From Candidatus Buchananbacteria bacterium (GTDB lineage: Bacteria; Patescibacteriota; Patescibacteriia; Buchananbacterales; UBA6539), in assembly GCA_041664165.1 (NCBI GenBank), contig JBAYLH010000001.1, forward strand, positions 9,469 to 73,468: a stretch of 64,000 nucleotides of DNA, given 5' to 3'. A program made the translations under genes and the position numbers. Positions 14,619 to 43,776 of the stretch are shown here, one piece after another. How positions within the stretch are numbered: position 1 is the first letter of the stretch; the number at the start of each line of letters is the position of its first letter. The notes under the pieces were generated by a model. The model was not told the DNA's origin and did not search any database. It worked only from the letters and a program-made list of their open reading frames with translations.

Positions 14619-14662
14619 AGTTAGGCTAGTAGGTTGGTAGGAAGGTAGGTTGGTAGAAATTC
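14619..14662. repeat. GGTAGG/CCTACC-rich leader repeat directly abutting the NUDIX start codon
   Basis: Coding strand reads cctaccaacctaccttcctaccaacctactagcctaactATG. Belongs to the (ACCUAA)n-like leader family. Confidence 0.45.
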
Positions 14663-15946
14663 CTACCGTCCTACTACCCTACCCCCCCCCCACTTACTAA
14701 TTAAATACTTTTTTCCTTTTAACTTCTCCGGCAGGTACTCCTGATCCTCTTGCCAGTCGTAGCTTGGCGAATACTTATAATCTTTGCCGTAATTCAAATC
14801 CTGCATCAGCTTGGTCGGCGCGTTGCGCAAATGAAGCGGCACCGGTTCGTCCATGGTCTCTTTCACATCCTGTTTGACCTGGCCATAAGCCTGGTAAACT
14901 TCAACTGACTTTTTGGCCCGCGCCAAATAGACAACGCATTCCGCCAAGGCAATATCACACTCCGGCATGCCTAAAAAATGAGCGGCCTGGTAAGCGGCAA
15001 CGGCCAAAGGCAGCGCCGCCGGATCGGCTAAACCGATATCTTCAACCGACATCCGAACCAGCCGCCGCGCGACATAAAGCGGGTCTTCGCCGGCCTCCAG
15101 CATCCGACCCAGCCAATATAACGCCGCATCGGCATTGCCGCCGCGAACGGATTTATGCAGCGCCGAAATAATATTATAATGCTGCTCGCCGGCTTTGTCG
15201 TATAAAAAACTGGACTTCTGCAGCGACTCTTTGATTATCTCTTTATCTAAAATGATTTTACCTTGCGAATTAGGTTTAGTCGAGTTGACGGCAAATTCCA
15301 AGGCATTTAACGCCACCCGGCCATCGCCATTGGCAAGACTGGCTAAATAACGAATCAGTTTATCGTCAGCGTCAATTTTTAACTTCGGAAAACCGGTCTG
15401 AACCGCCCGCTGGATAATCAATTCTAAATCATGCTCCGACAGCTGGTTTAAGACAAAAACCCGGCTGCGGGAAAGCAAAGCGGAGATCACTTCAAAACTC
15501 GGATTTTCCGTCGTCGCCCCGATTAGAGTAATCATCCCCTGCTCAACATAAGGCAAAAGCCCATCTTGTTGGGCTTTGTTCCACCGGTGGATTTCATCAA
15601 TGAATAAAATTGTCCGCTGGCCGTTAAATTTACGCCGGTCGGCCGCCAGCTTGATAATTTCCCGAAATTCCTTAACCCCGGAGCTAACGGCGGAAAGCTG
15701 GACAAAATGAGATTTAGTCATTTTGGCGATAATTCGCGCCAACGTACTTTTGCCCGTGCCCGGCGGACCCCAAAAAATCATGGACGGAATTTCATCGTTT
15801 TCCATGGCCTGGCGCAAAAGCTTGCCTTCGCCGACAATTTCTTTTTGGCCGACAAAGTCAGCCAAGCTTTCCGGCCGCAAACGGTCAGCTAAAGGCGCAT
15901 TACGCTTGATATCTTGTTGAAATTGTTGGTCAAATAGATCACTCAT
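14663..15946 (-). CDS. rarA: Replication-associated recombination protein A (AAA+ ATPase RarA/MgsA)
   Basis: WGPPGTGKSTLARIIA Walker A. Start taken as MSDLFDQQF at 15946. The track ORF extends to 15970 only by reading into the inserted GC-rich element. Confidence 0.85.
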   Translation of the reverse strand: MSDLFDQQFQQDIKRNAPLADRLRPESLADFVGQKEIVGEGKLLRQAMENDEIPSMIFWGPPGTGKSTLARIIAKMTKSHFVQLSAVSSGVKEFREIIKLAADRRKFNGQRTILFIDEIHRWNKAQQDGLLPYVEQGMITLIGATTENPSFEVISALLSRSRVFVLNQLSEHDLELIIQRAVQTGFPKLKIDADDKLIRYLASLANGDGRVALNALEFAVNSTKPNSQGKIILDKEIIKESLQKSSFLYDKAGEQHYNIISALHKSVRGGNADAALYWLGRMLEAGEDPLYVARRLVRMSVEDIGLADPAALPLAVAAYQAAHFLGMPECDIALAECVVYLARAKKSVEVYQAYGQVKQDVKETMDEPVPLHLRNAPTKLMQDLNYGKDYKYSPSYDWQEDQEYLPEKLKGKKYLISKWGGGRVVGR

Positions 15947-15952
15947 ATTTTT
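15883..15952. repeat. Direct repeat copy 1 (about 68 bp, includes rarA codons 1-21)
   Basis: ggtcagctaaaggcgcattacgcttgatatcttgttgaaattgttggtcaaatagatcactcatatttt. Repeated at 16116-16183. Confidence 0.8.
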
Positions 15953-16115
15953 GAGCCCGCCCCGCACCAAGCCTATATTTGAACCCTGATATCAAACTGG
16001 CTGAGCCGGAGACCTGCTTCGCCAATGATTAAGACTGGGGGGCTAGTCAAGGCAGGCGACTTCGCGCGAACCAAACTTAAATTTTAATTAAACTTAATCG
16101 CGGGCTTTGGTGCGG
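15953..16115. mobile_element. 163-bp GC-rich insertion with 11-14 bp terminal inverted repeats (MITE-like), flanked by a ~68-bp target duplication
   Basis: Left end gagcccgccccgcaccaagcc. Right end cgcgggctttggtgcgg, reverse complement ccccgcaccaaagcccgcg. GC content is far above the local background. Confidence 0.5.
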
Positions 16116-16183
16116 GGTCAGCTAAAGGCGCATTACGCTTGATATCTTGTTGAAATTGTTGGTCAAATAGATCACTCATATTT
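16116..16183. repeat. Direct repeat copy 2 (orphan copy of the rarA 5' end)
   Basis: Identical to 15883-15952. Reads into the element instead of into rarA. Confidence 0.8.
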
Positions 16184-16185
16184 TA

Positions 16186-16222
16186 TAGTGACATGTTACA
16201 TGTTACATGTCACATGTCACTT
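16186..16222. repeat. Tandem array of the palindromic hexamer ACATGT (5 copies)
   Basis: gtgacatgttacatgttacatgtcacatgtcac. Confidence 0.5.
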
Positions 16223-16249
16223 ACTTACTACCTGTTACTTATTTCTAAT

Positions 16250-16942
16250 TTATTTACCAAATCTCCTCTGCCTCTTATCATACTCGGCAATAATTAAATC
16301 TAAATCTTTTTCACCAAAATCCGGCCAGGTTTTTTTAATAAACATAATTTCCGAATAAACGGATTGCCAGGTTAAAAAATTGGAAAGCCGCTTTTCGCCG
16401 GAAGTTCGGACAATCAAATCCGGATCGGCAATACCCTGAGTCCAGAGATTTTTAGCAATCAACTCTTCCGTAATTTTTTTGGCCGGTGTTTTTTTGGCGG
16501 CGATTTTTTTAACCGCTTGCAAAATATCAGGCCGGCCGCCGTAGGAAACGGCGAGATTAAATAAAAGCTTATGGTTATTTTTAGTTTTAACCTCGGCTGA
16601 CTTAATCATTTTTTGGATATCAGGGGCTAACCGTTTTATCTGGCCAATGACTCTGACTTTTACCCCTTGTTTAGCCAATTGGCTGATATCTCGGCTTAAG
16701 GCCAGGCGAAAAAGATCCATCAAATAGCTTACTTCTTCTTTGGTGCGATTCCAGTTTTCACTTGAGAAGGCATAAACCGTTAAAACCTTGATTCCCCGGT
16801 CAATACACCACTGGGCAACCTTTTTCATTTTGTCGTAGCCTCGGCGATGGCCTTCCAAGCTCGGCAGACCCTTACTTTTGGCCCAGCGGCGATTACCATC
16901 CATAATAATGGCTAAATGGACTAAAGAGGGTTTTTGGTTCAT
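16250..16942 (-). CDS. uppS: Undecaprenyl-diphosphate synthase (isoprenyl transferase)
   Basis: LAIIMDGNRRWAKSKGL and RTSGEKRLSNFLTWQ motifs. Confidence 0.85.
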   Translation of the reverse strand: MNQKPSLVHLAIIMDGNRRWAKSKGLPSLEGHRRGYDKMKKVAQWCIDRGIKVLTVYAFSSENWNRTKEEVSYLMDLFRLALSRDISQLAKQGVKVRVIGQIKRLAPDIQKMIKSAEVKTKNNHKLLFNLAVSYGGRPDILQAVKKIAAKKTPAKKITEELIAKNLWTQGIADPDLIVRTSGEKRLSNFLTWQSVYSEIMFIKKTWPDFGEKDLDLIIAEYDKRQRRFGK

Positions 16943-17132
16943 ATTTCCCGCTAGAAATTAAAGGTTAAAAAGGCTTAAATTTTGGGCATTTTATAGTAAT
17001 TTCTGAATCTAAGCACCCAAACTCCATTAATCACTTCTAATGGGGTAAAATCGCCAAATTTAAGCAAATAAGACTACTTCATTGTAACGCTAAAAGCCAT
17101 TCTGGTCAAAAGAACAGCGGGGGTCAAAAATG

Positions 17133-17161
17133 TTGACAAAAATATTAGAATATGCTATAGT
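17133..17161 (+). promoter_or_regulatory. Near-consensus sigma-70 promoter (TTGACA-N17-TATAGT) of GC-rich cassette i
   Basis: ttgacaaaaatattagaatatgctatagt. Confidence 0.5.
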
Positions 17162-17223
17162 ACAATCTGCTTCGGATACCGCAACCAACTGGGCTACAAA
17201 CCAGCCCAATAAGAAAGGAAGCT

Positions 17224-17436
17224 ATGTTAAACCGAGTTTGGATGGTAATCGTGGTTGGCGGTTTTCTCGGCTGTGCTGTAGCCTGGTTCTTCGGAACCAT
17301 TGGTGAATGGCCGACTGGAAAGACCGTGGCCTTGACAGCTCTAAGCTGCCTGGCTATCGGAGTCGCCATGTACCCGCTGACCCTCCGCAAGGATGGTCTC
17401 GGATACTGGGGTGTCTTGAGGAAGTATTTCTTCTGA
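17224..17436 (+). CDS. Small 2-TM membrane protein (70 aa) on a GC-rich (~55%) cassette
   Basis: MLNRVWMVIVVGGFLGCAVAWFF...; RBS aaggaag; codon usage and GC differ from the flanking genes. Confidence 0.5.
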   Translation: MLNRVWMVIVVGGFLGCAVAWFFGTIGEWPTGKTVALTALSCLAIGVAMYPLTLRKDGLGYWGVLRKYFF

Positions 17437-17453
17437 CAAGACCCCTCCCGCCC

Positions 17454-17511
17454 GCAAGGCCGCTTTAGTCGCTCCTAACCCGAGAGACGACAGCGGCCTT
17501 GTCTTCTTTCT
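17454..17511 (+). terminator. Terminator hairpin (caaggccgc...gcggccttg, then a U-rich tract)
   Basis: 9-bp perfect stem with a structured loop, then tcttctttct. Confidence 0.4.
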
Positions 17512-17566
17512 ACCGGAGTTGATTTTTTAGCTAAAAGTGCTAAACTAAAATCTGTATTTAATAACG

Positions 17567-17672
17567 GGCCTGCCTGCCGGTAGGCAGGCTGTAGTCCCGC
17601 CCTTCGCGAAGGGCGGGATAAACTCCGCTGCCCGCCCGCCTGCTTCACAGGCGAAGCGGGCGGGACTAGCGC
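17567..17672. repeat. Cluster of three strong GC-rich hairpins upstream of tRNA-Pro
   Basis: gcctgccggtaggcaggc; tcccgcccttcgcgaagggcggga; cccgcccgcctgcttcacaggcgaagcgggcggg. Not protein-coding. Confidence 0.5.
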
Positions 17673-17704
17673 GTCCCTCACCTTTAACAATCTTTCACCT
17701 TTGT

Positions 17705-17778
17705 CGGGGTGTAGCGTAATTGGTTATCGCGCACGCTTCGGGTGCGTGAGATTCCGGGTTCGAGTCCCGGCACCCCGA
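17705..17778 (+). tRNA. tRNA-Pro (anticodon CGG)
   Basis: Cloverleaf CGGGGTG/CACCCCG acceptor, anticodon arm CACGC-TTCGGGT-GCGTG, T-arm CCGGG-TTCGAGT-CCCGG. No CCA encoded. Flanked by a 13-bp inverted repeat (tccctcaccttta / taaaggtgaggga). Confidence 0.8.
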
Positions 17779-17783
17779 TAAAG

Positions 17784-17832
17784 GTGAGGGATTCGGGACG
17801 ATGAGGTCAGGAGTTCGAATCTCCCCAGCCCG
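17784..17832 (+). pseudogene. tRNA-like 3'-half fragment (T-arm GGAGTTCGAATCTCC plus acceptor-like CCAGCCCGA), probably an integration scar
   Basis: No matching 5' acceptor strand or D/anticodon arms were found upstream. Confidence 0.35.
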
Positions 17833-17837
17833 ATTTA

Positions 17838-17861
17838 GAATCGCTTGAAGCGATTTTTTTG
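17838..17861 (+). terminator. Rho-independent terminator
   Basis: aatcgct-tga-agcgatt plus T7. Confidence 0.6.
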
Positions 17862-17890
17862 TTGTCAAAAAAGCTCTAATAACTTAAAAT
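17862..17890 (+). promoter_or_regulatory. Sigma-70-like promoter TTGTCA-N17-TAAAAT
   Basis: ttgtcaaaaaagctctaataacttaaaat. Confidence 0.4.
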
Positions 17891-17897
17891 ATAACTA

Positions 17898-17952
17898 TCA
17901 CTCCTTTCGAGTCTCATCGTGTTACTGCCATTGTAAAACCGAAAGGAGGTGA
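17898..17952 (+). promoter_or_regulatory. Leader hairpin that sequesters the Shine-Dalgarno sequence (anti-SD ctcctttcg pairs with cgaaaggag)
   Basis: 9-bp perfect helix plus 4 more bp across a 1-nt bulge. The 3' strand is the RBS aaggaggtga of the downstream small ORF. Confidence 0.4.
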
Positions 17953-17957
17953 GTTCC

Positions 17958-18119
17958 ATGTTTTGGTCAAAGAAAAAGTCAAAAAATCACCAGAAAGAAA
18001 AACCGAAAAGAAAAAAAAGAGGCACCAAAAAATGGAGCTTACTCTGTATGCTCTTCGAACATAGTTGGAGTGGAATGGTCTGCCGCCGCTGCGGCATCCA
18101 TTATGAGCCGAAGAAATAA
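17958..18119 (+). CDS. Small (53 aa) highly basic protein with C-terminal Cys/His cluster (zinc-ribbon-like); below the ORF-track size cutoff
   Basis: MFWSKKKSKNHQKEKPKRKKRGTKKWSLLCMLFEHSWSGMVCRRCGIHYEPKK. Strong RBS 7 nt upstream and a terminator immediately after. Confidence 0.35.
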   Translation: MFWSKKKSKNHQKEKPKRKKRGTKKWSLLCMLFEHSWSGMVCRRCGIHYEPKK

Positions 18120-18120
18120 A

Positions 18121-18158
18121 AGCACCTATTCCCCTGAATAGGTGCTTCGTCTTTTATT
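18121..18158 (+). terminator. Rho-independent terminator (also serves the convergent korB)
   Basis: agcacctattc-ccctg-gaataggtgct, then cgtcttttatt. Confidence 0.5.
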
Positions 18159-18165
18159 AAAAATC

Positions 18166-19020
18166 TTATTTGAATTCTTTCAGTAACTCGCTAATTTCAA
18201 CTTTTTTAACTTCCTGTTTGACTAAGGTTTGCTTGGCCAGCTGGGGCAGCTGCTGCTCATAAGTCGGCCGGCTTTCTTGATATAAAACGCCGATCGGCAA
18301 TTTTTCAGTTTCACCGGCTTTGGCATAGGCGACCGCTTTATCGTTTGGCTGATAATTGCTTTCTTCAAGTTTGTAAACTTTGGCCCGATATTGTTCCCGC
18401 ACGTCTTTGCCGTTAAAAATCACGCAAGGCTGTAAAACATCAACCAAAGAAAAACCCGGATGCGAGATGGCTTTTTTGAATAATTCCTTGAGATGGACAA
18501 CTTCATCGGAATACCCCTGAGCGACAAAAGTGGCGCCCAAAGTAATGGCGACTTGCAAGCCGTTAAACGGATATTCGATTAAACCATCGGGCGTCGATTT
18601 GGTTTTTTCGCCATGACCGGTCGTCGGCGAAGCTTGGCCGGTGGTTAAGCTATAGCGATGGTTATTATGAATAATGTAAGTAATATCGATATTACCGCGG
18701 CAAGTATGGATAAAATGGTTGCCGCCTTCGCCGTAGCCCCCGCCATCGCCGGAAATCGCAATGACTTTTAAGTCGTGATTGGCTAATTTAACCGCATAAG
18801 CAACGGGCAACGGCCGGCCGTGCAGGCTGTGAAAGCCGTAAACTCGATGCCAGTTGGCGCCATTGCCGCAGCAGCCGATATCAAAACTCATTACCACTTG
18901 ATGCGGTTCCAAACTTAATTCCGCCAGCGCCTGCCGCAAAGCCGTCCAGATGCCGAAGTTGCCGCAACCGACGCACCAGGTCGGCTTAATTTTTGTCATG
19001 AAATCAGTATCTTTTGCCAT
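18166..19020 (-). CDS. korB: 2-oxoacid:ferredoxin oxidoreductase beta subunit (TPP-binding)
   Basis: CVGCGNFGIWTALRQAL, the TPP-binding GDGG region, 284 aa. Confidence 0.75.
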   Translation of the reverse strand: MAKDTDFMTKIKPTWCVGCGNFGIWTALRQALAELSLEPHQVVMSFDIGCCGNGANWHRVYGFHSLHGRPLPVAYAVKLANHDLKVIAISGDGGGYGEGGNHFIHTCRGNIDITYIIHNNHRYSLTTGQASPTTGHGEKTKSTPDGLIEYPFNGLQVAITLGATFVAQGYSDEVVHLKELFKKAISHPGFSLVDVLQPCVIFNGKDVREQYRAKVYKLEESNYQPNDKAVAYAKAGETEKLPIGVLYQESRPTYEQQLPQLAKQTLVKQEVKKVEISELLKEFK

Positions 19021-19056
19021 ATTCCAAAATTTATAATTTTTAATTTATAATTTACT

Positions 19057-20826: not shown

Positions 20827-20885
20827 AGTAAAATTAGAATTAAAAGGGTAAATAATTTTTAATTTCTAGTTCGCCATTAATCATT

Positions 20886-23373: not shown

Positions 23374-23402
23374 CTCTTTTATTTTACCTTATTTGGCCTA
23401 AT

Positions 23403-23450
23403 AAAAAAAGGAGTTGCTTGCATTTATCATAAAGCAGCAACTCCTGGTAA
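23403..23450 (-). terminator. Terminator of GC-rich cassette ii
   Basis: Minus strand ccaggagttgctgc-tttatgataaat-gcaagcaactcc plus T8. Confidence 0.5.
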
Positions 23451-23870: not shown

Positions 23871-23924
23871 TACGACTCCCTCCTTCCTTCCCTTAAGCTA
23901 ATTATGGCCACGGCAACTTACGAT

Positions 23925-28865: not shown

Positions 28866-28939
28866 TGGCAGGGGCGGAAGGTGATGCTCCCTCGTCTGCG
28901 GTTTTGGAGACCGCCGTTCTACTGTTGAACTACGCCCCC
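28866..28939 (-). tRNA. tRNA-Trp (anticodon CCA), intact copy with unusual T-loop
   Basis: GGGGGCG acceptor, D-arm GTTC-AACAGTA-GAAC, anticodon arm GCGGT-CTCCAAA-ACCGC, 3' CGCCCCT-G-CCA (CCA encoded). T-loop AGCATCA is atypical. Confidence 0.65.
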
Positions 28940-28954
28940 GTAAAAAACTCCAAC

Positions 28955-29206
28955 CTATTTTAATCCTAATCTTTTCATTAATGCCATATACACTGAACCA
29001 CTTGATTTTATTCCTTTTTCTCTTTTTAACGCCAGATATTTATCATTATATGCTTCATAATACAATAATCTTGGGTTTTTGTCCTTGGTTGTTTTTACCC
29101 GACCTGACAAATGTTCCTCTAACCTCTTTTTAAGATCCGAGGCATAACCAATATAAAAATCTTTATTTTTAATACCATCAATTTTTAATAAATAAACGTA
29201 GTACAT
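28955..29206 (-). CDS. Small GIY-YIG nuclease family protein (copy 1)
   Basis: MYYVYLLKIDGIKNKDFYIGYASDLKKRLEEH is the GIY-YIG motif. 83 aa. Confidence 0.75.
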   Translation of the reverse strand: MYYVYLLKIDGIKNKDFYIGYASDLKKRLEEHLSGRVKTTKDKNPRLLYYEAYNDKYLALKREKGIKSSGSVYMALMKRLGLK

Positions 29207-29211
29207 AATCG

Positions 29212-29312
29212 ACTAGTTTTGGAGACACCCGTCGCTCGCGAGCCACGTCGCACGTGTGCGACTGTGGCGAGCAACGGGTGAGACCGCCGTTCTACTGTTG
29301 AACTACGCCCCC
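29212..29312 (-). pseudogene. Orphan 5' copy of tRNA-Trp (positions 1 to ~41) interrupted by a 58-nt GC-rich hairpin insertion in the anticodon stem-loop
   Basis: gttttggagaccgccgttctactgttgaactacgccccc duplicates 28895-28939. The insert at 29227-29284 is bounded by a 5-bp repeat gagac. Confidence 0.55.
29227..29284. repeat. 58-nt GC-rich imperfect palindrome (hairpin element) inside the orphan tRNA-Trp
   Basis: cacccgtcgctcgc-gagccacgtcgcacgtgtgcgactgtggc-gagcaacgggtg. Confidence 0.55.
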
Positions 29313-29339: not shown

Positions 29340-29495
29340 TTACTTGGTTTCTTTATGTGTTACATGCTTTTTACAATGCTTGCAGAATTTTTTCATTTCC
29401 AGTCGGTTCTTAAGAGTCTTTTTATTCTTTTTGGAAAAATAATTCACTCTTTTACAGGCAGTGCATTCTAATTTTATCAGGTTGTCTTGGGACAT
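29340..29495 (-). CDS. rpmG: 50S ribosomal protein L33 (below the ORF-track cutoff)
   Basis: [51 protein letters not shown]. Confidence 0.7.
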
Positions 29496-29560
29496 AAATT
29501 AGGTATTAGGTTATTAGGTGTTAGGTTGCTAGGTATTAGCTGTTAGTTTTAAAGCCAACA
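29496..29560. repeat. (ACCUAA)n-type leader repeat abutting the rpmG start codon
   Basis: Coding strand reads ...acctagcaacctaacacctaataacctaatacctaatttATG. Confidence 0.5.
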
Positions 29561-29666
29561 GCTCCGATTTTAAGCTGGGACGACCTACTTATTTATCCCG
29601 ACTTCTTTATTTTTTTTAAACAATTCGGTACGTCGGGACAAAACAGTTGTTCCACCTGCCCTTGCC

Positions 29667-29700
29667 TTAGCCGACGGGGTGATTTGAACACCCGACCAAT
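29667..29700 (-). pseudogene. tRNA 3'-half-like fragment (T-arm GGGTG-TTCAAAT-CACCC)
   Basis: Canonical T-arm with no matching 5' half nearby. Confidence 0.3.
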
Positions 29701-29729
29701 AGTTTATCCCGATTTTATTTAAAATTTTA

Positions 29730-29803
29730 CTGGAGCCGGGGACAGGAATTGAACCTGCGACCAATAGTTTACAAAACTACTGCTCTACCGCTGAGCTACC
29801 CCG
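29730..29803 (-). tRNA. tRNA-Thr (anticodon UGU)
   Basis: GCCGGGG-TA-GCTCAGCGGTAGAGC-A-GTAGT-TTTGTAA-ACTAT...GCAGG-TTCAATT-CCTGT-CCCCGGC-T-CCA. Confidence 0.85.
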
Positions 29804-30200: not shown

Positions 30201-30202
30201 AG

Positions 30203-32390: not shown

Positions 32391-33293
32391 CTACGGCCAG
32401 ACATAATTTCTAAACACCCAATCAACTAACCCCTTGGCTTCCTGCCAACGATCAGTAATGCTGGCCGCCCCGAGTATCACTAACGTTAAATCAGGACCAT
32501 TATTTTTTTTCAGCTGCAAAAGCAAGCAATAGCCGGCCTCGTTAAGATAGCCGGTTTTAGCGCCTAAAATTTGATATTCGCCTTGATTTAAAAAACTGCC
32601 CAGCAAGCGGTCGGTGTTAACTGCCCGGCTCTGGCGCTGATTATTTAAAACTAAAAACGGATGTTCCTCGCTCGTTACCGCTTGGGCAATTTCCGGCCGG
32701 GCGAAAGCGGCCTGGGCTAGTTTCGCCAAATCAGCGGGTGAAGAAACATTGCCCGGCTCCACGCCGCTGGGGTCAATAAAATAAGTATCCGCCATCCCTA
32801 ATTCTTTGGCCTTATGGTTCATCGCCGCGGCAAAATCCGGCAAGCCAATACTTTTAGCCAAAGCCACGGCGGCTTCGTTAGTTGACGATACCAGCATCAA
32901 ATAAAACAAATCTTTGACCGTCACTTCTTCGCCGGGCAAAAGATTGACCAATCCCCCTTCGCGCTGGTCATCTTTAGTAATCATCACTTTTTTATTCCAG
33001 TCCGGTTTGGCGTCTAAAACCACCAAGGCATTCATTAGTTTGGTGATGCTGGCAATCGGTAAAATTAAGTCGGGACTTTTGCTGTATAAAACGGTGCCAG
33101 TGGCGTTATCAATAACCAAAATACTTTTGGCCGTTGTCTGCAAGCCGAAACTGTTATTGGCAACTCTTTGCGGCAAAACTTTAGAAGCGGCGGCAAAGGC
33201 ATAAGAATTATCAGCCGGCTTGGCAATTAAAAAATTAAAGCCGCTAGGAATTAGCAGGCTGGCAAAAATTAGGCTGGCAAGAAAATTAAACAT
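32391..33293 (-). CDS. D-alanyl-D-alanine carboxypeptidase (S11 family PBP)
   Basis: Signal peptide, SxxK motif ASITK, SSTN-like motif VSSTNEAA. Confidence 0.7.
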   Translation of the reverse strand: MFNFLASLIFASLLIPSGFNFLIAKPADNSYAFAAASKVLPQRVANNSFGLQTTAKSILVIDNATGTVLYSKSPDLILPIASITKLMNALVVLDAKPDWNKKVMITKDDQREGGLVNLLPGEEVTVKDLFYLMLVSSTNEAAVALAKSIGLPDFAAAMNHKAKELGMADTYFIDPSGVEPGNVSSPADLAKLAQAAFARPEIAQAVTSEEHPFLVLNNQRQSRAVNTDRLLGSFLNQGEYQILGAKTGYLNEAGYCLLLQLKKNNGPDLTLVILGAASITDRWQEAKGLVDWVFRNYVWP

Positions 33294-33294
33294 A

Positions 33295-33350
33295 GTTTAA
33301 ATATCAGATATCAGAAAACAGAAATAAGAGATCAGAGATAAGTTTAGATT
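33295..33350. repeat. CAGA-rich repeat block (left inverted-repeat flank of the 4HB gene)
   Basis: atcagatatcagaaaacagaaataagagatcagagataag. Confidence 0.5.
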
Positions 33351-33353
33351 AAT

Positions 33354-33725
33354 TTATTTTAATTTTTGTTTATTGCTATTAATCCAGCCATAAAGTATTT
33401 TACTAGTCTCTTCTGTTTCTTGAGCTATTTGGTTATATTCTTTTTGATCTAATAATTTTAGGTCAAAACTTAGCATCAATTGATATTTTAATTCTTCAAG
33501 TGAACCCTGGGCAATATTATAAAAATTAAGACTATCTTTTACTGTTTTTCTACGGAATCCTTCAACAATATTACAGGCTAATGATACAACCGCCCGTCTC
33601 ATCTGAGAAACTAGACCGAATTTTTCTTCAGCCGGAAAAAATTTAGTAATCTCATAAACATGCAAAGCAAGATTATGAGACTTCTGCCAAACAATTAAAT
33701 CTTTAAACGTTCTAATTTGCGCCAT
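33354..33725 (-). CDS. Four-helix-bundle protein (23S rRNA intervening-sequence protein / DGR Avd-like family)
   Basis: IVWQKSHNLALHVYEITKFFPAEEKFGLVSQMRRAVVSLACNIVEGF is the TIGR02436-like signature. Confidence 0.7.
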   Translation of the reverse strand: MAQIRTFKDLIVWQKSHNLALHVYEITKFFPAEEKFGLVSQMRRAVVSLACNIVEGFRRKTVKDSLNFYNIAQGSLEELKYQLMLSFDLKLLDQKEYNQIAQETEETSKILYGWINSNKQKLK

Positions 33726-33744
33726 AATTTATTATATTAATAAT

Positions 33745-33850
33745 TAGTTGGCGCTATGTTGATTAATATCTAAATCTGCTTCTATTTACTGCTCTCTGTT
33801 TTCTGATTTCTGCTATCTGCTCTCTGCCATCTGCTCTCTATTCTCCGGGC
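33745..33850. repeat. CAGA-rich repeat block in inverted orientation (right flank of the 4HB gene)
   Basis: Reverse complement contains gcagatagcagaaatcagaaaacagagagcag and shares ATCAGAAAACAGA with the left flank. Confidence 0.5.
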
Positions 33851-34379
33851 TTAATATTTTTTCCAAACTTTCGCTGGAATTCAATTTGTCATAATCAGGC
33901 AGCTGCGACGGTTCATTAATTCCTAAAAAGTTGAGAAAGTCAAAAGTGATGCTGTAAGTGGTTTGCATTTTCTTTTTATCATCATGGCTTTCCACTAAGC
34001 CCCGAATCAAAAGATTGCGTAAAATTATGGCACAGTTGACTCCCCGGATTTGCTCCAGTTCCGCCCGGGTAACTGGTCCGCGATAAGCGATAATGGTCAA
34101 TGTCTCCAAAGCCGGCCGGGTTAATTCGCCGGTAGTTTCTTCTTTGATAAAATCTTTAACCATTTTGCCGTTGTCGGCCAAAGTTACCATTTGGACTTTG
34201 TCGCCGATTCGCTGGACCTGAATTCCTTTGTCTGGCTGGTTGTAATCAGCCATCAATTCCTTAATTCCTTGCTCAACTTTATCTTTTTCGGCCTTGGTTA
34301 AATCCACTAAGCGCTTAACACCCAAGGGCTGATTAGAAACAAAAAGCAGGCTTTCAATTTTTGATTTTAGACTGGGCAT
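33813..34379 (-). CDS. scpB: Segregation and condensation protein B
   Basis: IESLLFVSNQPL...ELTRPALETLTIIAY winged-helix pattern. Confidence 0.8.
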   Translation of the reverse strand: MPSLKSKIESLLFVSNQPLGVKRLVDLTKAEKDKVEQGIKELMADYNQPDKGIQVQRIGDKVQMVTLADNGKMVKDFIKEETTGELTRPALETLTIIAYRGPVTRAELEQIRGVNCAIILRNLLIRGLVESHDDKKKMQTTYSITFDFLNFLGINEPSQLPDYDKLNSSESLEKILSPENREQMAESR

Positions 34380-35149: not shown

Positions 35150-35170
35150 GCCGCACCGGCAAAAACAAAC

Positions 35171-35211
35171 AGGCACCAGGCCAATTGAGTCTGGTGCCTT
35201 TTCTTTTTTTT
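35171..35211 (+). terminator. Rho-independent terminator
   Basis: aggcaccag-gccaattgagt-ctggtgcct, then TTTTCTTTTTTTT. Confidence 0.6.
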
Positions 35212-35222
35212 AAGCATTCTAA

Positions 35223-36662: not shown

Positions 36663-36664
36663 AT

Positions 36665-38053: not shown

Positions 38054-38067
38054 AATTAATTATTTAT

Positions 38068-39453: not shown

Positions 39454-39456
39454 AAA

Positions 39457-40224
39457 TTATATTCCGCCTCCGTCTTCAAATTCTTCCTGATTTCTCATAA
39501 ACTCACCCAGATTATAACGGCGAAGCTGCTCTTGAGTTTCTTCATCGACCGGCACGCCTAAACTTTGCCAATAATAACTCTCAACAATTTTTTCCGTTAA
39601 TTCCGCGCCTTGCGGCTCATTGCCCAAAACATAAACATTATCCAATATTTTCGGGTCATTAAGCTTTTTTTCTTTCCTGGCTTGCAAAGTTAAAAGGTCA
39701 GTATGTTTTAAAGTTGGATCCAAAATAATCACCGGCCGGACTGGTTTTTCTTCTTCGCCGATTCGCTGACCAATCCGCTCGCTTTCCAACGCCGTAAATA
39801 ATTCAACCACGGTTCCCTGTCCCCCGCCTAAAACGACATAGGCGCTAGACTCATCAACTAAATGGCCCAACCGCTGCGGCAAAGTTTCAGACCGGATAAC
39901 TCCGGCTTTCTTGGCCTCTCTTGATCTTAATTTTTCCGCTTCAAAAGTAAAAGCTTTAACCATTGCTTTTGGTTTCAGTCCGAGCGCTTCGGCTTTTTCG
40001 ACGCCGGCTTCGCTGGCCGCTTTCATCACCCCGCCATAGCCGCCGGTGCCAAGACTAAAGCCATTTTCAACCAGCCGAGTCGCAACTTGACTGGCGTTTT
40101 CGATAGCAATTTTATCTTCTTTGGTTGTCTCGCCGCCGGTGCCAAAAATCGCCACTTGGTAAGCTGCTCGCCGTTCTGACGAATCTTGACTTTCTCTTGC
40201 TCCCTCTGGTCCTTTGGTTCTCAT
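39457..40224 (-). CDS. LOG-family (TIGR00730) Rossmann-fold nucleotide phosphoribohydrolase-like protein
   Basis: GTGGYGGVMKAAS and VLGGGQGTVVEL motifs. Confidence 0.6.
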   Translation of the reverse strand: MRTKGPEGARESQDSSERRAAYQVAIFGTGGETTKEDKIAIENASQVATRLVENGFSLGTGGYGGVMKAASEAGVEKAEALGLKPKAMVKAFTFEAEKLRSREAKKAGVIRSETLPQRLGHLVDESSAYVVLGGGQGTVVELFTALESERIGQRIGEEEKPVRPVIILDPTLKHTDLLTLQARKEKKLNDPKILDNVYVLGNEPQGAELTEKIVESYYWQSLGVPVDEETQEQLRRYNLGEFMRNQEEFEDGGGI

Positions 40225-40235
40225 ATTTTTTAAAT

Positions 40236-40943
40236 TTAATTCAATTTCTCAATCGTAATATCATCAAAAGTTTTCGTCTGCCTGGCAACGACTACTCTTT
40301 GCTTAATTAATTCCAAAAGCGCCAAAAAACTGACAATCACTTCGGTTCGATCCTTAGCCTCCCGCAAAATTTCAGAAAAATTAGCCGAAGCCTGGCGGTA
40401 AATTTTTTCCCGGATCTGGGCGATTTTTTCCTGGATACTGATGGTTTTTCTGACGACTTCCGTGGGCAAATTCAAAATCGGCGCCAAACCGCGGATAATC
40501 TCTTCAAAAACTTGGGCTAATTTATTTTTGGTTAATTTTTCCGGCGGGGCAAAACCGATTTCTTCGGCGACTAAAAGTTTTTCGCGGGAAAAACTGAATC
40601 GTTTTTTGCCAATCATTCCCGAAACCACCTTGCACGCTTCCAGGTATTCTTTGTAAATTTTAAGCTGCTTGGTCAGCTCTTCGCCCTCTTCTTCTTCGCC
40701 CCATTCCAAAAACGGCAAGAGCGCTTTGGATTTGATCAAAAGCAATCTGGCCGCAATCACTAAAAAATCAGCCAACTCCTCGGCTGAAACCGCGCTTTGG
40801 GTTGATTGATTTAGAATCTGAATATATTGCTCAGTTACCTGGGCCAAAGAAACTTTGGTAATCTCTAATTTTTGTTCTTCGATTAGCTGAAGCAACAAAT
40901 CGAGCGGCCCTTCAAACTGTTGGACTTTGACTTTATGCATCAT
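40236..40943 (-). CDS. scpA: Segregation and condensation protein A
   Basis: FEGPLDLLLQLIEEQKLEITKVSLAQVTEQY. Confidence 0.8.
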   Translation of the reverse strand: MMHKVKVQQFEGPLDLLLQLIEEQKLEITKVSLAQVTEQYIQILNQSTQSAVSAEELADFLVIAARLLLIKSKALLPFLEWGEEEEGEELTKQLKIYKEYLEACKVVSGMIGKKRFSFSREKLLVAEEIGFAPPEKLTKNKLAQVFEEIIRGLAPILNLPTEVVRKTISIQEKIAQIREKIYRQASANFSEILREAKDRTEVIVSFLALLELIKQRVVVARQTKTFDDITIEKLN

Positions 40944-41027
40944 AAAAGCAAATCAAGTTGGCAAGCAAATCAAGTTGGCAAGCTTACCTTACTTGATTTA
41001 CTGAATTCACTAACTTTCTATTCATCA

Positions 41028-41621
41028 TTACTTGCGTCTTTTTCCTGTGGCCTTCTTGGTTAATTTTCTTTTTGGTTTTTTAGATGATTTTTTAGCTACC
41101 TTCTTCTTACCACTTTTTTTAACTTTCTTTTTTGACCTAACCTGCAGCTTATAACCGCCCGTTTTGGCAAAATTTGCCAGTTTGGCCTGTTCTAATTCAA
41201 TAAAATCCTTGGCTTTCATTCGAATCGAATCGGTAAAACTGCCGGCAGTCAAAATCACGTCTTTGGTTTTGAGCAGACTTTTATCCACCCAGACTTCGAC
41301 TTTGTGCAAACCGCCGAAAGCTGTCATGGTTCCGGGCTTAACTTTAAAAACCTTGAGCATCATTTTCTCGTCGGGAATAGAAACTTTTTTTACCTTCAGT
41401 GCCTGTTTGAGCTTGGCTAAATCAATTCTCATGTGCGCCGGCACCACGGCGATAATATAAGCTTTGTCCGTGGCAACTAATAAATTCTTGGCAATTTCCT
41501 TGAGCTCTTTTTGCAAAGTCTGCGCCGCGTCATAAGCGGTATAAACGGTTTTATGGGTAATGGCATCGTATTTGGCCAAATTTTTATCGAGATAAGTTTT
41601 GATGTGTTTAGGGATTGGCAT
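41028..41621 (-). CDS. YbaK/ProX-like aminoacyl-tRNA deacylase domain protein with Lys-rich C-terminal tail
   Basis: YDAITHKTVYTAYDAAQTLQ...TMTAFGGL core, then a 50-aa K/R-rich tail. Confidence 0.5.
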   Translation of the reverse strand: MPIPKHIKTYLDKNLAKYDAITHKTVYTAYDAAQTLQKELKEIAKNLLVATDKAYIIAVVPAHMRIDLAKLKQALKVKKVSIPDEKMMLKVFKVKPGTMTAFGGLHKVEVWVDKSLLKTKDVILTAGSFTDSIRMKAKDFIELEQAKLANFAKTGGYKLQVRSKKKVKKSGKKKVAKKSSKKPKRKLTKKATGKRRK

Positions 41622-41674
41622 AGATTAGATAATTATAAATTATAAATTATTGATTATTGATTATTGATTTTCAT

Positions 41675-42625
41675 CTAGTTAACTGGCGCTGCCTGGGGTA
41701 CGGGGGCAGGTATTATTTTGCCATTTAAGGAATCAGTAACCGTTGAATTAAAACACTGATAGCCTGCCTGGTGATAAGACCAATCTTTGTTGCCGCCATA
41801 AGTATAATCCCGATTGTTTGAGTCTACGGCCAAAGAAAAAGTCGCGCAAAGTTCGTAGTTTTTATCGCCTAAAATTTTGTAACCATAAGGTTTCTCGTTT
41901 TCCGGATCTTTAAACTGAGCAAATTTTGCGGCCGTCAAATCAGCGGGCAATTTTTTATTTTGGGCATAATCATCATTAATCATTCCGTCAAGATTATACA
42001 AATCGCTAATTCGCTGCTGATCAAATTTAATGAGTCGAGCCTGGGCTGGCGAATCGATAATCATAAACCCACCAATTACTGAGGCTAAAGCAATAATAAC
42101 AACTATAATCATGGCCAATTTGGAAACTAGGCTTTTCTGGCTAAAATCTTTTCTGGTTAAATCATAAAGATAATAGCCGAAAATCCCGCCGGCAATTACA
42201 AAAATTACCAGGGTTTTTAAAACGACCGCCATCGCATAATCGCCGTCTAGAAAGCGGAAAAGCTGGTAAATCAACCGGCCGATGATGGTTAAAGCCGAAA
42301 CTAAAAGCATTAAATAAGTCAGCCAGCGATGAACGCCGCTTTGATGGCTAAGCTTGCCAATTTTATAATTATGATGCAGCCAGCCGGAAATTGCCAAATA
42401 GACCGGCGTCAAAATTATGGCCGAAGCAATGCCGAATTTAAGCGGACCCTGAGAAAAAACAGCGACATAATCAATGGCTTTGGCAGTAAAAAATTTGTTG
42501 ACGATCTGAAATAAAATCATGCCAATGGCAATTGACATCCAGCCAACCGTAATCAAGCTTAGCAGATTCAAAAAGGCGTCTAAAGCCCCTTTGCCTTTAA
42601 ATTGTTCTTGAGTTTGTGTCTCCAT
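41675..42625 (-). CDS. Membrane protein, function unknown
   Basis: 316 aa with 4-5 TM helices and a Cys/Trp-containing C-terminal extracytoplasmic domain. Confidence 0.4.
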   Translation of the reverse strand: METQTQEQFKGKGALDAFLNLLSLITVGWMSIAIGMILFQIVNKFFTAKAIDYVAVFSQGPLKFGIASAIILTPVYLAISGWLHHNYKIGKLSHQSGVHRWLTYLMLLVSALTIIGRLIYQLFRFLDGDYAMAVVLKTLVIFVIAGGIFGYYLYDLTRKDFSQKSLVSKLAMIIVVIIALASVIGGFMIIDSPAQARLIKFDQQRISDLYNLDGMINDDYAQNKKLPADLTAAKFAQFKDPENEKPYGYKILGDKNYELCATFSLAVDSNNRDYTYGGNKDWSYHQAGYQCFNSTVTDSLNGKIIPAPVPQAAPVN

Positions 42626-42652
42626 ATTTTTTTTAAAATTAAAAATTAGAGC

Positions 42653-42964
42653 TCATTTTTTAATATTTTTAAATGGCAGTTTTTGCTGAAAGCCAAATAG
42701 ACTTTTGGCTAACTTGCTGCCTTTAGGGGTTAATTTAACCTGTTTGATAAACCACTTATGCGACGTTTTCCAGCCGTAACCGATTATCAGCTCTTTTTTA
42801 ATCAGCCGCTCTACACTTTTGGTGATGATATTAATCGCATCTTTGGCTTTTGGCAATTTAGATTTGTTACTATAAAAATGTTCCAAAGTTGCTTTAGAAA
42901 TTATTTTGTCTTTCGTTTGGACACACTGCTTTAGGATGTATTTTTGGAGAACGGAAAGTTTCAT
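42653..42964 (-). CDS. Small basic hypothetical protein
   Basis: 103 aa, Lys-rich. Confidence 0.35.
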   Translation of the reverse strand: MKLSVLQKYILKQCVQTKDKIISKATLEHFYSNKSKLPKAKDAINIITKSVERLIKKELIIGYGWKTSHKWFIKQVKLTPKGSKLAKSLFGFQQKLPFKNIKK

Positions 42965-43034
42965 AGTTTCAGTAAATCAAGTTTGCAAGCTAACAAGCCG
43001 CTTGATTTACTTGTTGACTTGCCAGCTGGCGAAC

Positions 43035-43703
43035 TTATAACAACTTGAAGTTATTAATTTCCAGCCCGAATTTATAGCCTAAATACTCGGCGGCAATGCG
43101 GCAAAACGCCATGCGTTCGGTAAAAATTTCGAAGTATTCCAGCGGCGCGGAAAATTTGGTGTCCAATTTAAGCCGTAAACTGATTAATTTCCTTTTCGGA
43201 TCAACCACTAAATCATTATCAATGATGGCATAATTAACCCGGTCATGAATGTCTTTTTCAAAATTATAACCCTTAGATTGTTTAACCCGCGACCGATGAA
43301 CATCGGATTTATCGGCTAAAATTAAAACCGCCGTGACGACATCAACAATTTTTAATTCATCTTTATCATGGCTGACAATCGCCTGCATAATCGTTGAAAC
43401 ATCATCGGGATTATCAACTTGATTCAAAAAAACCTGGGAAAAAAGCAAAGCGGCCCAATAATGATGCTGGGTTCGACCCAAAAAATTTCCCAAGTCATGG
43501 CAGTAGCCGGCAATTGACGATAATTCCTGATCGCGCTCTTTTAAACCAAGTTTTTTGGCGATGCTGCGCGCCCGGTCGGCCACGATATTGATATGGCGCA
43601 AACCATGGTCGGTATAACCCAAGGCATTTAAATACTTTTCCGTTTGGCCGATAAAATTTTTAATCTTTTTATCATTTTTAACGATGTCTAAGGTTAATTT
43701 CAT
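43035..43703 (-). CDS. HD-domain phosphohydrolase
   Basis: HGLRHINIVA...GYCHDLGNF HD motif. Confidence 0.6.
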   Translation of the reverse strand: MKLTLDIVKNDKKIKNFIGQTEKYLNALGYTDHGLRHINIVADRARSIAKKLGLKERDQELSSIAGYCHDLGNFLGRTQHHYWAALLFSQVFLNQVDNPDDVSTIMQAIVSHDKDELKIVDVVTAVLILADKSDVHRSRVKQSKGYNFEKDIHDRVNYAIIDNDLVVDPKRKLISLRLKLDTKFSAPLEYFEIFTERMAFCRIAAEYLGYKFGLEINNFKLL

Positions 43704-43776
43704 AGGAATTTAGGAAGTTAGGTACTAGGTACTTTAGGTGCTAGGTGTTAGGTTGTTAGGGGTTTAGAATTTTAAT
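43704..43776. repeat. (ACCUAA)n-type leader repeat abutting the HD-protein start codon
   Basis: Coding strand reads ccctaacaacctaacacctagcacctaaagtacctagtacctaacttcctaaattcctATG. Confidence 0.5.

Follow-up and report, generated by a model that had tools for sequence, protein, structure and literature searches.

Short-period repeat arrays and hairpins at gene junctions of a Buchananbacteria-like CPR bacterium

The repeat leaders that adjoin three start codons in the 64,000-nt stretch analysed here (the window) are probably the ACCTAR/CCTACC-type members of a genome-wide population of intergenic arrays and hairpins with a 7-8 nt period. We hold with moderate confidence that they would act through G-poverty or architecture and not through ACCUAA itself. 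A three-gene regulon, as proposed in the first-pass annotation, is not supported.

Three leader tracts and their folding

G-poor ACCTAR/CCTACC repeats occupy the 44-73 nt 5' of the ATGs of a NUDIX hydrolase gene (14172-14618), of rpmG encoding ribosomal protein L33 (29340-29495) and of an HD-domain phosphohydrolase gene (43035-43703). Pfam confirmed the identities of the three genes and their minus-strand orientation. On the mRNA strand, the leaders read ...ctaccaacctaccttcctaccaacctactagcctaact then ATG (NUDIX, site 1), ...aatacctagcaacctaacacctaataacctaatacctaattt then ATG (rpmG, site 2) and attaaaattctaaacccctaacaacctaacacctagcacctaaagtacctagtacctaacttcctaaattcct then ATG (HD, site 3). The annotated C/A-rich leaders are real: the pattern ACCTAR-N1-3-ACCTAR-N1-3-ACCTAR has six matches in the window, all of them on the minus strand and confined to 29499-29534 and 43718-43753, with 0 expected from 100 shuffles, and a CCTAM x3 pattern additionally matches 14621-14649 and its inverted partner at 14662-14682. 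The tract sequences are identical in assemblies of two other samples (L001 and L129) and are therefore not assembly artefacts; array copy number is unchanged in these samples, and slippage was not seen directly.

The true unit is ACCTAR with a spacer of 1-3 nt, TRF giving period 7 (ATTAGGT x5.7, TTAGGTG x4.3) and period 8 (GTAGGTTG x3.5). Site 1 (14619-14662, minus strand) is a CCTACC-type array of period 8, with ~3.5 units plus CCTAA, that fills the whole mgsA-NUDIX spacer and is one half of an inverted repeat; its unit is related to but distinct from ACCTAR. Site 2 (29496-29546, minus strand) is a solo ACCTAR heptamer array of ~6 units at the rpmG-proximal end of the 235-nt spacer downstream of tRNA-Thr. 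It stops 3 nt short of the rpmG ATG and has a small 9-bp hairpin (29538-29563, minus strand) directly 5' of it. Site 3 (43704-43776, minus strand) is a solo ACCTAR/CCTAA array of ~8 units, spaced 7-9 nt, which takes up all of the asnS-HD spacer and for which no structure is predicted. The tracts of the supposed shared repeat were upheld, while the hexamer description was wrong and the three do not form a single element: two are solo ACCTAR arrays and one is a CCTACC hairpin arm. The two units may be treated as one family because ACCTAAC and ACCTACC units co-occur in one array in other genomes (L034, L060, L086).

As first described, none of the three leaders carries a purine-rich SD (no GGAG, GAGG, AGGA or AAGG at -4 to -20). 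The repeat does not, however, replace an SD, since an SD-like motif was found in only 7 of 66 window genes and its absence is the rule here. This scarcity agrees with the detection of an anti-SD motif in only 48% of Parcubacteria (PMC9297842). Over -45 to +15, the three leaders gave MFEs of -1.6, -5.7 and -1.3; array-free genes averaged -7.0 (n=58) and array leaders -4.8 (n=8), and the latter are not all unstructured (AGATTTA -10.1, CTTTTAG -12.9). Site 3 folds weakly (-3.5 kcal/mol over 112 nt), and its spacer with the flanking stop and start codons has an MFE of -1.3 (z +0.15). CA-rich or unstructured SD-independent translation enhancers have been defined experimentally in E. coli. The window tracts would resemble them as C/A-rich, G-poor, unstructured RNA beside the start of SD-less mRNAs, but the E. 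coli enhancers are not heptamer arrays.

Site 1 folds into a hairpin of -39.2 kcal/mol (z -3.5). The site supplies the 3' arm and the end of mgsA the 5' arm, where the inverted partner GGGTAGGGTAGTAGGACGGTAGG (14663-14692, minus strand) codes for the last MgsA residues (…SKWGGGRVVGR*). This tail is missing in relatives, in which MgsA ends …KYLNK* or …RYLK*.

Other arrays of the window and their turnover in relatives

The ~6 kb of spacer in the window contains 12 arrays of period 7, 8, 14 or 15, whereas shuffles gave 0.28 (maximum 2); arrays with other periods are absent. At least eight different units are present. When the window and four relatives are taken together, 14 of the 15 period-7 arrays are intergenic, though ~89% of the DNA is coding. 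Other units occupy the same leader position before other window genes, all on the minus strand: (AGATTTA)4 (12988-13015) adjoins the start of gene 12650-12988, (ATAAATT)3.9 (19028-19054) adjoins that of gene 18166-19020, (ACATGTN)3.9 (16191-16217) lies just 5' of the ancestral mgsA start copy, (CAATAAT)3(TATAATT)3 (41631-41669) lies 5' of a tRNA_edit-domain gene, (CTTTTAG)4.3 (51874-51903) is the entire secY-adk spacer, and (TTCTGAT)n (33303-33342) is both the 3' flank of a PF05635 gene and the leader of an S11 peptidase gene. An inverted (CAGAAAT/AGAGCAG)n array (33780-33845, minus strand) forms the 5' flank of the PF05635 gene, and (CAGAAAT)3.7 (8567-8592, plus strand) lies between convergent genes and adjoins no start codon. 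Significant hairpins (z<=-2) were predicted in 9 of 23 co-directional spacers versus 1 of 23 CDS controls. An ACGAAT-array hairpin (14084-14171, minus strand; -32.3 kcal/mol, z -5.9) is the entire NUDIX-pilT-like spacer, and a second copy (45208-45275, minus strand; z -4.9) adjoins the asnS start.

In relatives, the orthologous spacers hold a different unit, a different hairpin, or nothing. The rpmG leader of L003 has no array, and the CCTACC tract is retained only in the closest NUDIX relative. The asnS-HD spacer carries no array in L003, is 11 nt long in L005, and has (GTTAACA)n downstream of asnS in both L002 and L007; the HD proteins of these two share 77% identity. A hairpin occupies the mgsA-NUDIX spacer of the window (GGTAGG/CCTACC), of L135 (AGGAATT/AATTCCT, z -5.4) and of L133 (AAATTCT/AGAATTT, z -8.2). 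Four genomes have an array hairpin as their NUDIX-pilT spacer (z -5.4 to -7.2), built from ACGAAT/GCGAAT-type units in the window and in L135 but from other units in L133 and L136. These comparisons suggest that an orthologous spacer keeps its array or hairpin architecture while its unit is exchanged or the array disappears. At non-orthologous loci, a near-identical string (cctaacYtcctaaattcct) is found in the window HD leader and in the recO leader of L007, which has the same kind of tract.

The positional bias towards start codons was borne out. The CCTAA-type arrays of the window and four relatives (~142 kb) adjoin an ATG in sense orientation in 4 of 4 cases. ACCTAR arrays are present in Bacteroidota, Cyanobacteria, Acidobacteriota and CPR, and among 134 such arrays (120 loci, many phyla), 18 are in sense orientation no more than 30 nt from a start, versus 5 in antisense (p=0.011), with starts taken from crude gene calls (ATG-initiated ORFs of >=80 aa). 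This is 2.4-fold above a random-intergenic control, in which 5.5% fell near a start in sense (p=4e-4). The bias is modest, and more than 80% of the ACCTAR arrays in other genomes are not beside a start codon. A role in SD-independent initiation, part of the original proposal, is therefore possible on positional grounds, while its regulon reading is not upheld.

A structural model and its alternatives

Among known systems, the TAACTGA direct repeats of marine Beggiatoaceae, which some Cyanobacteria and Bacteroidetes also carry, come closest (MacGregor 2015, PMC4679880). These tandem 7-nt units, in 2-6 or more copies, are nearly all intergenic and mainly forward, lying directly 5' of start codons and commonly ending 1 nt away; SDs are rare in the spacers, the downstream genes are unrelated, with ribosomal proteins among them, and a translation role was proposed (PMC4679880). 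The window tracts have the same anatomy (tandem heptamers, forward, near the start, SD rare) but another unit, ACCTAR/CCTACC instead of TAACTGA, and a CPR host. Arrays here also often pair with inverted copies into hairpins, whereas BOGUAY has one indirect repeat among 170 sets (PMC4679880).

We favor a model where arrays, solo or paired with an inverted copy, occupy a large share of co-directional spacers, both in this Buchananbacteria-like CPR bacterium and in related genomes, and would turn over quickly. They would fall into the class of heptanucleotide simple sequence repeats, which slippage creates and homogenises if the published proposal for that class applies. On a presumed polycistronic mRNA, they would fix RNA structure at the stop-to-start junction. 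The solo G-poor arrays of sites 2 and 3, structure-free because they hold too few G for pairing, may offer an SD-less landing pad 0-3 nt short of the ATG. Site 1 is the predicted 3' arm of a ~20-bp hairpin, and because the 5' arm is the last mgsA codons, the NUDIX initiation region may stay closed until the ribosome completing mgsA, or a double-strand RNase, opens it. The ACCUAA sequence itself would not be the signal; what is selected, if anything, may be sense-strand G-poverty or array architecture beside the start codon, in an organism that appears to initiate mostly without SD. It is plausible that the arrays play such a structural part at intercistronic junctions without an SD.

Cyanobacterial STRR are heptamer repeats forming period-7 tandem arrays. 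Heptanucleotide long simple sequence repeats, for which a slippage origin was proposed (Mrazek et al. 2007, as reported in PMC4679880), are, like the window arrays, of period 7, above chance and excluded from coding sequence. Repeats of this kind occur in Cyanobacteria and other scattered lineages. The window arrays differ in being short (3-8 units), in lying between the stop and start codons of neighbouring genes in a genome of roughly the 1-Mb class, and in showing no copy-number polymorphism among the samples available. The arrays could be nothing but slippage products collecting without function in unselected spacers, adjoining starts only because co-directional spacers are short; we see this as possible but rather unlikely. 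It would fit the fast turnover of orthologous sites, the array between convergent genes, the location of 133 of the 134 ACCTAR arrays outside ORFs, and the report that, in most of the genomes surveyed, heptamers outnumber every other class of long 5-11 nt simple repeats (Mrazek 2007, as reported in PMC4679880). It does not fit the sense/antisense asymmetry near starts and its excess over the intergenic control, the confinement of the rpmG array to the last 50 nt of its spacer, or the hairpin architecture kept at orthologous junctions despite replaced sequence. Moreover, a CPR genome under strong size reduction retains these spacers, although some relatives have just 1-11 nt at the same junctions.

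REP/BIME elements are dispersed imperfect palindromes of co-directional gene spacers, with several sequence families per genome, and are presumed to act in mRNA stability, termination or translation. The window hairpins answer to the same description, but their arms are made of tandem heptamers, and the solo, non-palindromic sites 2 and 3 are not REP-like. The 23S IVS of Coxiella combines an S23p ORF, GACAGAT heptamers, a 28-bp stem and RNase III cleavage, and its tandem heptamers lie directly 5' of the ORF start and vary in copy number between strains (PMC4990558). The PF05635 cassette of the window similarly has a same-family ORF between stem-forming inverted repeats, with tandem heptamers directly 5' of the ORF start; it is located, however, between protein-coding genes and not inside rRNA, and sites 1-3 have no PF05635 gene. 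Inverted heptamer arrays bracket PF05635/S23p genes, as in the Coxiella architecture, in 5 of the 5 cases examined (window, L002, L045, L087, L092). An inverted CCTAA-type pair is found within 900 nt at 30 of the 120 loci, G-arm-first in 32 versus 4, and the site 1 stem lengthens MgsA by ~10 residues relative to relatives, as an insertion might. These results, with the near-identical strings in different genomes, would suit arrays that serve as the terminal inverted repeats of small stem elements able to move or recombine (REP/MITE-like or IVS-like), putatively cut by RNase III, solo ACCTAA arrays being half-elements that lost the purine-rich arm. We consider this unlikely, as sites 2 and 3 lack a partner arm, neither a transposase nor a target-site duplication accompanies the arrays, and the arm polarity is broken once within the clade (L133).

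The trans-acting-factor model proposed by MacGregor for TAACTGA (PMC4679880) would here make (ACCUAR-N)n a specific cis-element, bound by one factor (S1, a cold-shock/KH protein or similar) that enhances or represses translation of a defined mRNA set. It would account for one unit at two loci 14 kb apart, both sense and adjoining ATG, and for the sense bias beside start codons across phyla. Loci of one genome also share units that other genomes do not use (ACCTAR at 2-3 loci in the window, TTAACA at 3 loci in L007), as co-evolution of unit and binding factor would predict. Nonetheless, the unrelated units in the same position, the lack of the element from the orthologous rpmG leader and its replacement or loss at the asnS-HD spacer of relatives, and the sequestration of site 1, with its other unit, in a hairpin all speak against it. 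NUDIX, L33 and HD hydrolase have no evident function in common, and no candidate factor was found. We judge this model improbable, and the other units, the failure of the element to persist at orthologues and the lack of a common function also tell against the small post-transcriptional regulon.

That the tracts are Rho-loading (rut) sites, C-rich, G-poor, unstructured RNA of 50-70 nt recruiting Rho after a stop so that downstream transcription needs prompt translation initiation, is very improbable: the 13-17 C and 2-3 G counted in the 45-nt leaders, the predicted lack of structure at site 3, the untranslated gaps downstream of asnS and tRNA-Thr and the restriction of the sense orientation to the C-rich strand would agree with it, but most other arrays at this position are AU-rich and C-poor, site 1 is base-paired, and the tracts are at most as long as a usual rut site.

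A point against the favored model is that local slippage alone does not explain one unit at several loci per genome or near-identical strings at non-orthologous loci between genomes.

Heptanucleotide arrays at the three leaders and across the window

Nearly all genes of the window lie on the minus strand, and Pfam identified the three genes of interest as a NUDIX hydrolase (14172-14618), ribosomal protein L33 (rpmG, 29340-29495) and an HD-domain protein (43035-43703). The repeats that the first-pass annotation placed directly 5' of their ATGs are real. In the mRNA sense, ACCTAA/ACCTAG cores precede rpmG (29496-29546) and the HD gene (43704-43776) and CCTACC cores precede the NUDIX gene (14619-14662), each final core stopping 2-5 nt short of the ATG, as it does at recO in a relative (L007). 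The pattern ACCTAR-N1-3-ACCTAR-N1-3-ACCTAR matched six times in the window, on the minus strand only and confined to 29499-29534 and 43718-43753, against no match in 100 shuffles. A CCTAM x3 pattern additionally found 14621-14649 and an inverted copy at 14662-14682, the NUDIX tract being one half of an inverted repeat. All three tracts were base-for-base identical in the assemblies of two other samples (L001, L129).

The hexamer repeat proposed as common to the three genes survived only in part. TRF reported period 7 before rpmG (5.7 copies, 29498-29539) and the HD gene (4.3 copies, 43734-43764) and period 8 before the NUDIX gene (3.5 copies, 14629-14656); the tracts are indeed repeats, with the three or more head-to-tail copies of a 7-nt unit that define a heptanucleotide array, but they recur every 7-8 nt (a core and its spacer of 1-3 nt) rather than every 6, and the NUDIX unit differs from the other two.

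TRF uncovered many further period-7 arrays in the window spacers, mostly adjoining a start codon: AGATTTA (4 copies, 12988-13015), ACATGTN (3.9 copies, 16191-16217), ATAAATT (3.9 copies, 19028-19054), (TTCTGAT)n at 33303-33342 and n copies of its complement at 33780-33845, CAATAAT/TATAATT (3 + 3 copies, 41631-41669), CTTTTAG (4.3 copies, 51874-51903) and, between convergent genes, CAGAAAT (3.7 copies, 8567-8592). The ~6 kb of spacer in the window held 12 arrays of period 7, 8, 14 or 15 and none of any other period, compared with 0.28 (maximum 2) in dinucleotide-shuffled spacers. Four relatives showed the same habit with other units, and 14 of the 15 period-7 arrays in the window and these relatives were intergenic in DNA that is ~89% coding. 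At least eight units other than ACCTAR-N and CCTACC-NN are repeated within the window, and no further CCTAA-type array was found in the ~9 kb past its right end (L131) or the <1 kb past its left end (L130). The three tracts are thus best regarded as one variety of a general heptanucleotide-array feature.

The arrays exceed what composition predicts and are excluded from coding sequence, as in the broader class of heptamer-dominated long simple-sequence repeats (Mrazek 2007, as summarised in PMC4679880). Their assignment to this class, as one unit family among many, is shown by these properties and is the best-supported reading of the tracts. The closest precedent is the TAACTGA heptamer repeats of Beggiatoaceae, which are forward-oriented and free of SDs, often stop 1 nt short of the start codon and precede unrelated genes, ribosomal protein genes included, with no known function (PMC4679880). 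The window arrays share the forward orientation, the end a few nt from the start and the lack of an SD in between, but differ in the unit (ACCTAR-N or CCTACC-NN, with many other heptamers coexisting, where heptamers related to TAACTGA are not repeated in the precedent), in the CPR host and in their frequent pairing into hairpins. The STRR heptamers of cyanobacteria belong to the same broader class. A full-text search found no description of heptamer arrays in CPR, an absence that holds within the literature searched.

Two assembly breaks lie close to the tracts: the contig of the closest relative (L136) opens within the array, 27 nt ahead of the NUDIX start codon, and that of another sample (L129) opens 142 nt ahead of the rpmG start codon. 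These independent breaks suggest that short-read assembly of these genomes is interrupted by the arrays and by repeats close to them.

Start codons, orthologous junctions and distribution across phyla

No SD-like motif (GGAG, GAGG, AGGA or AAGG at -4 to -20) precedes any of the three starts, as had been noted. The motif was present in only 7 of the 66 window genes, so its absence is the genomic norm and the repeat, read at first as an SD replacement, replaces nothing particular to the three genes. The nearest proteins come from Patescibacteria/Candidatus Buchananbacteria MAGs, and the low SD usage agrees with the detection of an anti-SD motif in only 48% of Parcubacteria (PMC9297842). No 16S gene was found in the window or in the loci compared with it. 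Alternative pairing of the tracts with the 16S tail would find no complement in a canonical tail (…CACCUCCUUA), which ACCUAA/CCUACC resembles instead.

Synteny is conserved between the window and its relatives. The asnS-HD spacer holds (GTTAACA)n in two of them (L002 and L007, whose HD proteins share 77% identity), has no array in L003 and is 11 nt long in L005; the rpmG leader of L003 is AT-rich and array-free. At the mgsA-NUDIX junction, the closest relative (L136, 77% identity) retains 'ctaccaacctaccaatctaacct ATG', and the tract is replaced by an AGGAAUU/AAUUCCU hairpin in L135 (z -5.4) and by an AAAUUCU/AGAAUUU hairpin in L133 (z -8.2). Between NUDIX and pilT, each of the four genomes has a hairpin made of arrays (z -5.4 to -7.2), with ACGAAT/GCGAAT-type units in the window and L135 and different ones in L133 and L136. 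The L007 recO gene follows a tract of the CCTAA type (cctaacctcctaaattcctaacctcctaaattcctaat ATG), which has an inverted partner (z -6.3) and shares the string cctaacYtcctaaattcct with the HD leader of the window. The comparison indicates that position and architecture persist while sequence does not, and that unit families recur at non-orthologous junctions.

The small post-transcriptional regulon suggested by the first-pass annotation is therefore not supported: the element is not conserved at orthologous genes, and its targets (NUDIX hydrolase, L33, HD hydrolase and, in L007, recO) are functionally incoherent. No single repeat unit should be annotated as a regulon signal.

The relatives' TTAACA arrays (L002 5294-5321; L007 9498-9530 and 12088-12106) end in TTAACTT(T/A)A beside an ATG, with a probable similarity to the 'epsilon' enhancer (UUAACUUUA) of phage T7 gene 10.

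A fixed-gap pattern scan with one genome per species returned at least 120 loci, in Bacteroidota, Cyanobacteria, Acidobacteriota, several CPR lineages, Gammaproteobacteria and others, so that the taxa are sampled rather than counted in full. Among the matches listed, 133 of 134 ACCTAR arrays fell outside ORFs of ≥80 aa. Of the 134, 18 stood in sense and 5 in antisense orientation no more than 30 nt ahead of an ATG-ORF (binomial p=0.011); against the 5.5% expected for random intergenic placement, the sense arrays were enriched (p=4e-4) and the antisense arrays no different. The repeat is not equally frequent irrespective of position, and a bias toward start codons is supported; yet >80% of the listed arrays were not start-proximal.

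An inverted pair of CCTAA-type arrays within 900 nt was present at 30 of the at least 120 loci listed, and in these matches (L009-L128) the order was 5'-(TTAGG)n…(CCTAA)n-3' in 32 pairs and reversed in 4. The TTAGG-first order reads identically on both strands. Within the clade, inverted pairs occur at window positions 14619-14692, in L007 (3461-3544) and in L135 (2602-2676 and 3925-4003), with one exception to the TTAGG-first order in L133 (3863-4003).

Predicted RNA structure and competing explanations

The NUDIX tract is predicted to form a long imperfect hairpin (-39.2 kcal/mol, z -3.5). Its 5' arm, GGGUAGGGUAGUAGGACGGUAGG, comprises the last mgsA codons and its 3' arm is the CCUACC tract; the 5' arm encodes the MgsA tail SKWGGGRVVGR*, which relatives do not have. 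The rpmG and HD tracts have no partner arm. The HD leader is predicted to be nearly structure-free (-3.5 kcal/mol over 112 nt; spacer plus flanking codons -1.3, z +0.15), because it contains few G. Significant hairpins (z<=-2) were predicted for 9 of the 23 co-directional spacers of the window and for 1 of 23 CDS controls, and several of the spacer hairpins, the twice-occurring ACGAAT element included, consist of an array and its own inverted copy. An unstructured leader as a trait of all arrays was rejected (mean -4.8, n=8, vs -7.0, with two arrays folding well); by these predictions the property holds for the G-poor ACCTAR tracts only.

The effect of the arrays at junctions is likely structural, and we infer that it is exerted on the RNA. 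Heptanucleotide simple-sequence arrays, solo or as hairpin arms, would build the stop-to-start junctions of this lineage. Before rpmG and the HD gene they would provide a G-poor, single-stranded leader, and at the NUDIX gene the stem would shut the initiation region until it is cut by an RNase or opened by a ribosome reaching the end of mgsA. A streamlined CPR genome spends 40-140 nt on arrays or array-built hairpins at many junctions where relatives have 1-11 nt; the architecture is kept as the sequence is swapped, and the C-rich strand is favoured beside start codons across phyla in the matches listed. These junction arrays bear on how translation starts where SD-anti-SD pairing is mostly missing (in Bacteroidota, many Cyanobacteria and part of the Parcubacteria) and on what heptamer arrays do, a question as old as their first description, and they offer a concrete and cheap test system for SD-independent start.

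Several rivals to this structural role stand. The tracts might be neutral slippage debris, as their simple-sequence nature and the turnover of units between relatives would allow; no copy-number difference indicative of phase variation or slippage was found between the window and the two other samples (L001, L129), the other relatives being only 77-82% identical in protein, and the sense-strand bias beside start codons speaks against this reading. Loading of Rho is another competing explanation. A Rho utilisation site is expected to be ~70-80 nt of untranslated, unstructured RNA rich in C and poor in G. The HD tract has such traits, being 73 nt long with 15 C and 3 G in a 45-nt leader and no predicted structure; the rpmG tract is only ~50 nt and the NUDIX tract is paired. 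A dedicated ACCUAA-binding regulator also competes: the recurrence of one unit, in sense orientation, directly before the rpmG and HD starts speaks for it, and the lack of conservation at orthologous genes and of functional coherence against. Mobile IVS/REP-like stems are the remaining rival, with a stable stem of the REP/BIME-like palindrome kind seen at the NUDIX tract and absent at rpmG and the HD gene.

A broader synthesis would treat ACCTAA-type arrays as the pyrimidine-rich arms of a cross-phylum polar stem family, the purine-rich arm always 5', with the architecture found around PF05635/S23p genes and around the intervening sequences of 23S rRNA. In this view, junctions between CPR cistrons would have been invaded by IVS-like elements; RNase III cleavage or ribosome unwinding would free a short, G-poor, structure-free 5' leader for SD-independent initiation, and the solo arrays of rpmG and the HD gene would be the constitutively open form. 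We consider this synthesis improbable as a whole.

Other readings were set aside: a promoter, since no sigma-70-like -35/-10 pair lies in or beside any of the three tracts; an intrinsic terminator, with no stem and T-run in the NUDIX or HD array and only a weak match at rpmG, upstream of the array; a known structured RNA, since Rfam covariance models returned only tRNAs at gathering score and nothing credible at E<=1 around the rpmG and HD tracts; a CRISPR/TIGR-type guide array, the units being contiguous (1-3 nt between cores) beside housekeeping genes; and stops in all three frames as a function, which by inspection arise as TAA/TAG shifts frame with every third 7-nt unit and do not discriminate because the antisense strand and most AT-rich units behave in the same way.

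A PF05635 cassette and other mobile-looking elements

A PF05635 gene (23S rRNA IVS/S23p, four-helix-bundle, bAvd-like; 33354-33725, minus strand, within 33281-33870) is inserted between scpB and an S11 peptidase gene, a junction of only 2-21 nt in L003, L005 and L007. Inverted heptamer arrays bracket it, CAGAAAT-type on the 5' side and TTCTGAT-type on the 3' side. Similar brackets occur in L002, in L045 (CAACAGC unit) and in L087 and L092, the last two built of TTAGGTN…ACCTAAN arrays. The cassette mirrors the stem and heptamers of the Coxiella 23S IVS, in which an S23p ORF is preceded by tandem GACAGAT heptamers and enclosed in a 28-bp terminal stem excised by RNase III (PMC4990558). A PF05635 gene was found inside the 8-kb locus in only 3 of the at least 120 loci listed; the association, striking where present, leaves most arrays unexplained and was rejected as a general account.

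Two further hairpin families were observed. An ACGAAT(A/C)T-heptamer hairpin has two copies in the window, one ahead of the pilT-like gene (14084-14171) and one ahead of asnS (45208-45275), and related forms in L135 (4445-4543) and L007 (10670-10730) at orthologous and non-orthologous junctions; these hairpins are a REP-like dispersed family. The spacers 40944-41027 and 42965-43034 share a caagttggcaagcaaat/aaatcaagt…acttgattt hairpin motif (z -3.5 and -3.0), probably a further dispersed family.

The 5' end of mgsA is present as two direct copies of 69 nt (16184-16116 and 15951-15883, minus strand) that enclose ~164 nt of inserted DNA, itself bounded by inverted repeats (CCGCACCAA…TTGGTGCGG); mgsA truly starts with the ATG at 15946 rather than with the TTG at 15970. 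The map-ruvX spacer of L002 contains a comparable element (1015-1222), ccccggcaccaa…ttggtgcgggg. In 28866-29310, a small GIY-YIG gene (28955-29206) lies immediately ahead of an intact tRNA-Trp (28866-28939) and has upstream of it a second copy of the first 32 nt of that tRNA (gggggcgtagttcaacagtagaacggcggtctc). This orphan tRNA half is followed by a GC-rich hairpin, and the GIY-YIG gene looks like a mobile cassette inserted at the tRNA anticodon loop. Between tRNA-Thr and rpmG (29600-29730) lie partial copies of the tRNA-Thr(UGU) 3' half (aaactattggtcgggtgttcaaatcaccccg; gtcgggataaataagtaggtcgtccc), and analogous duplicated 3'-half fragments occupy the same place in L003 (20400-20540).
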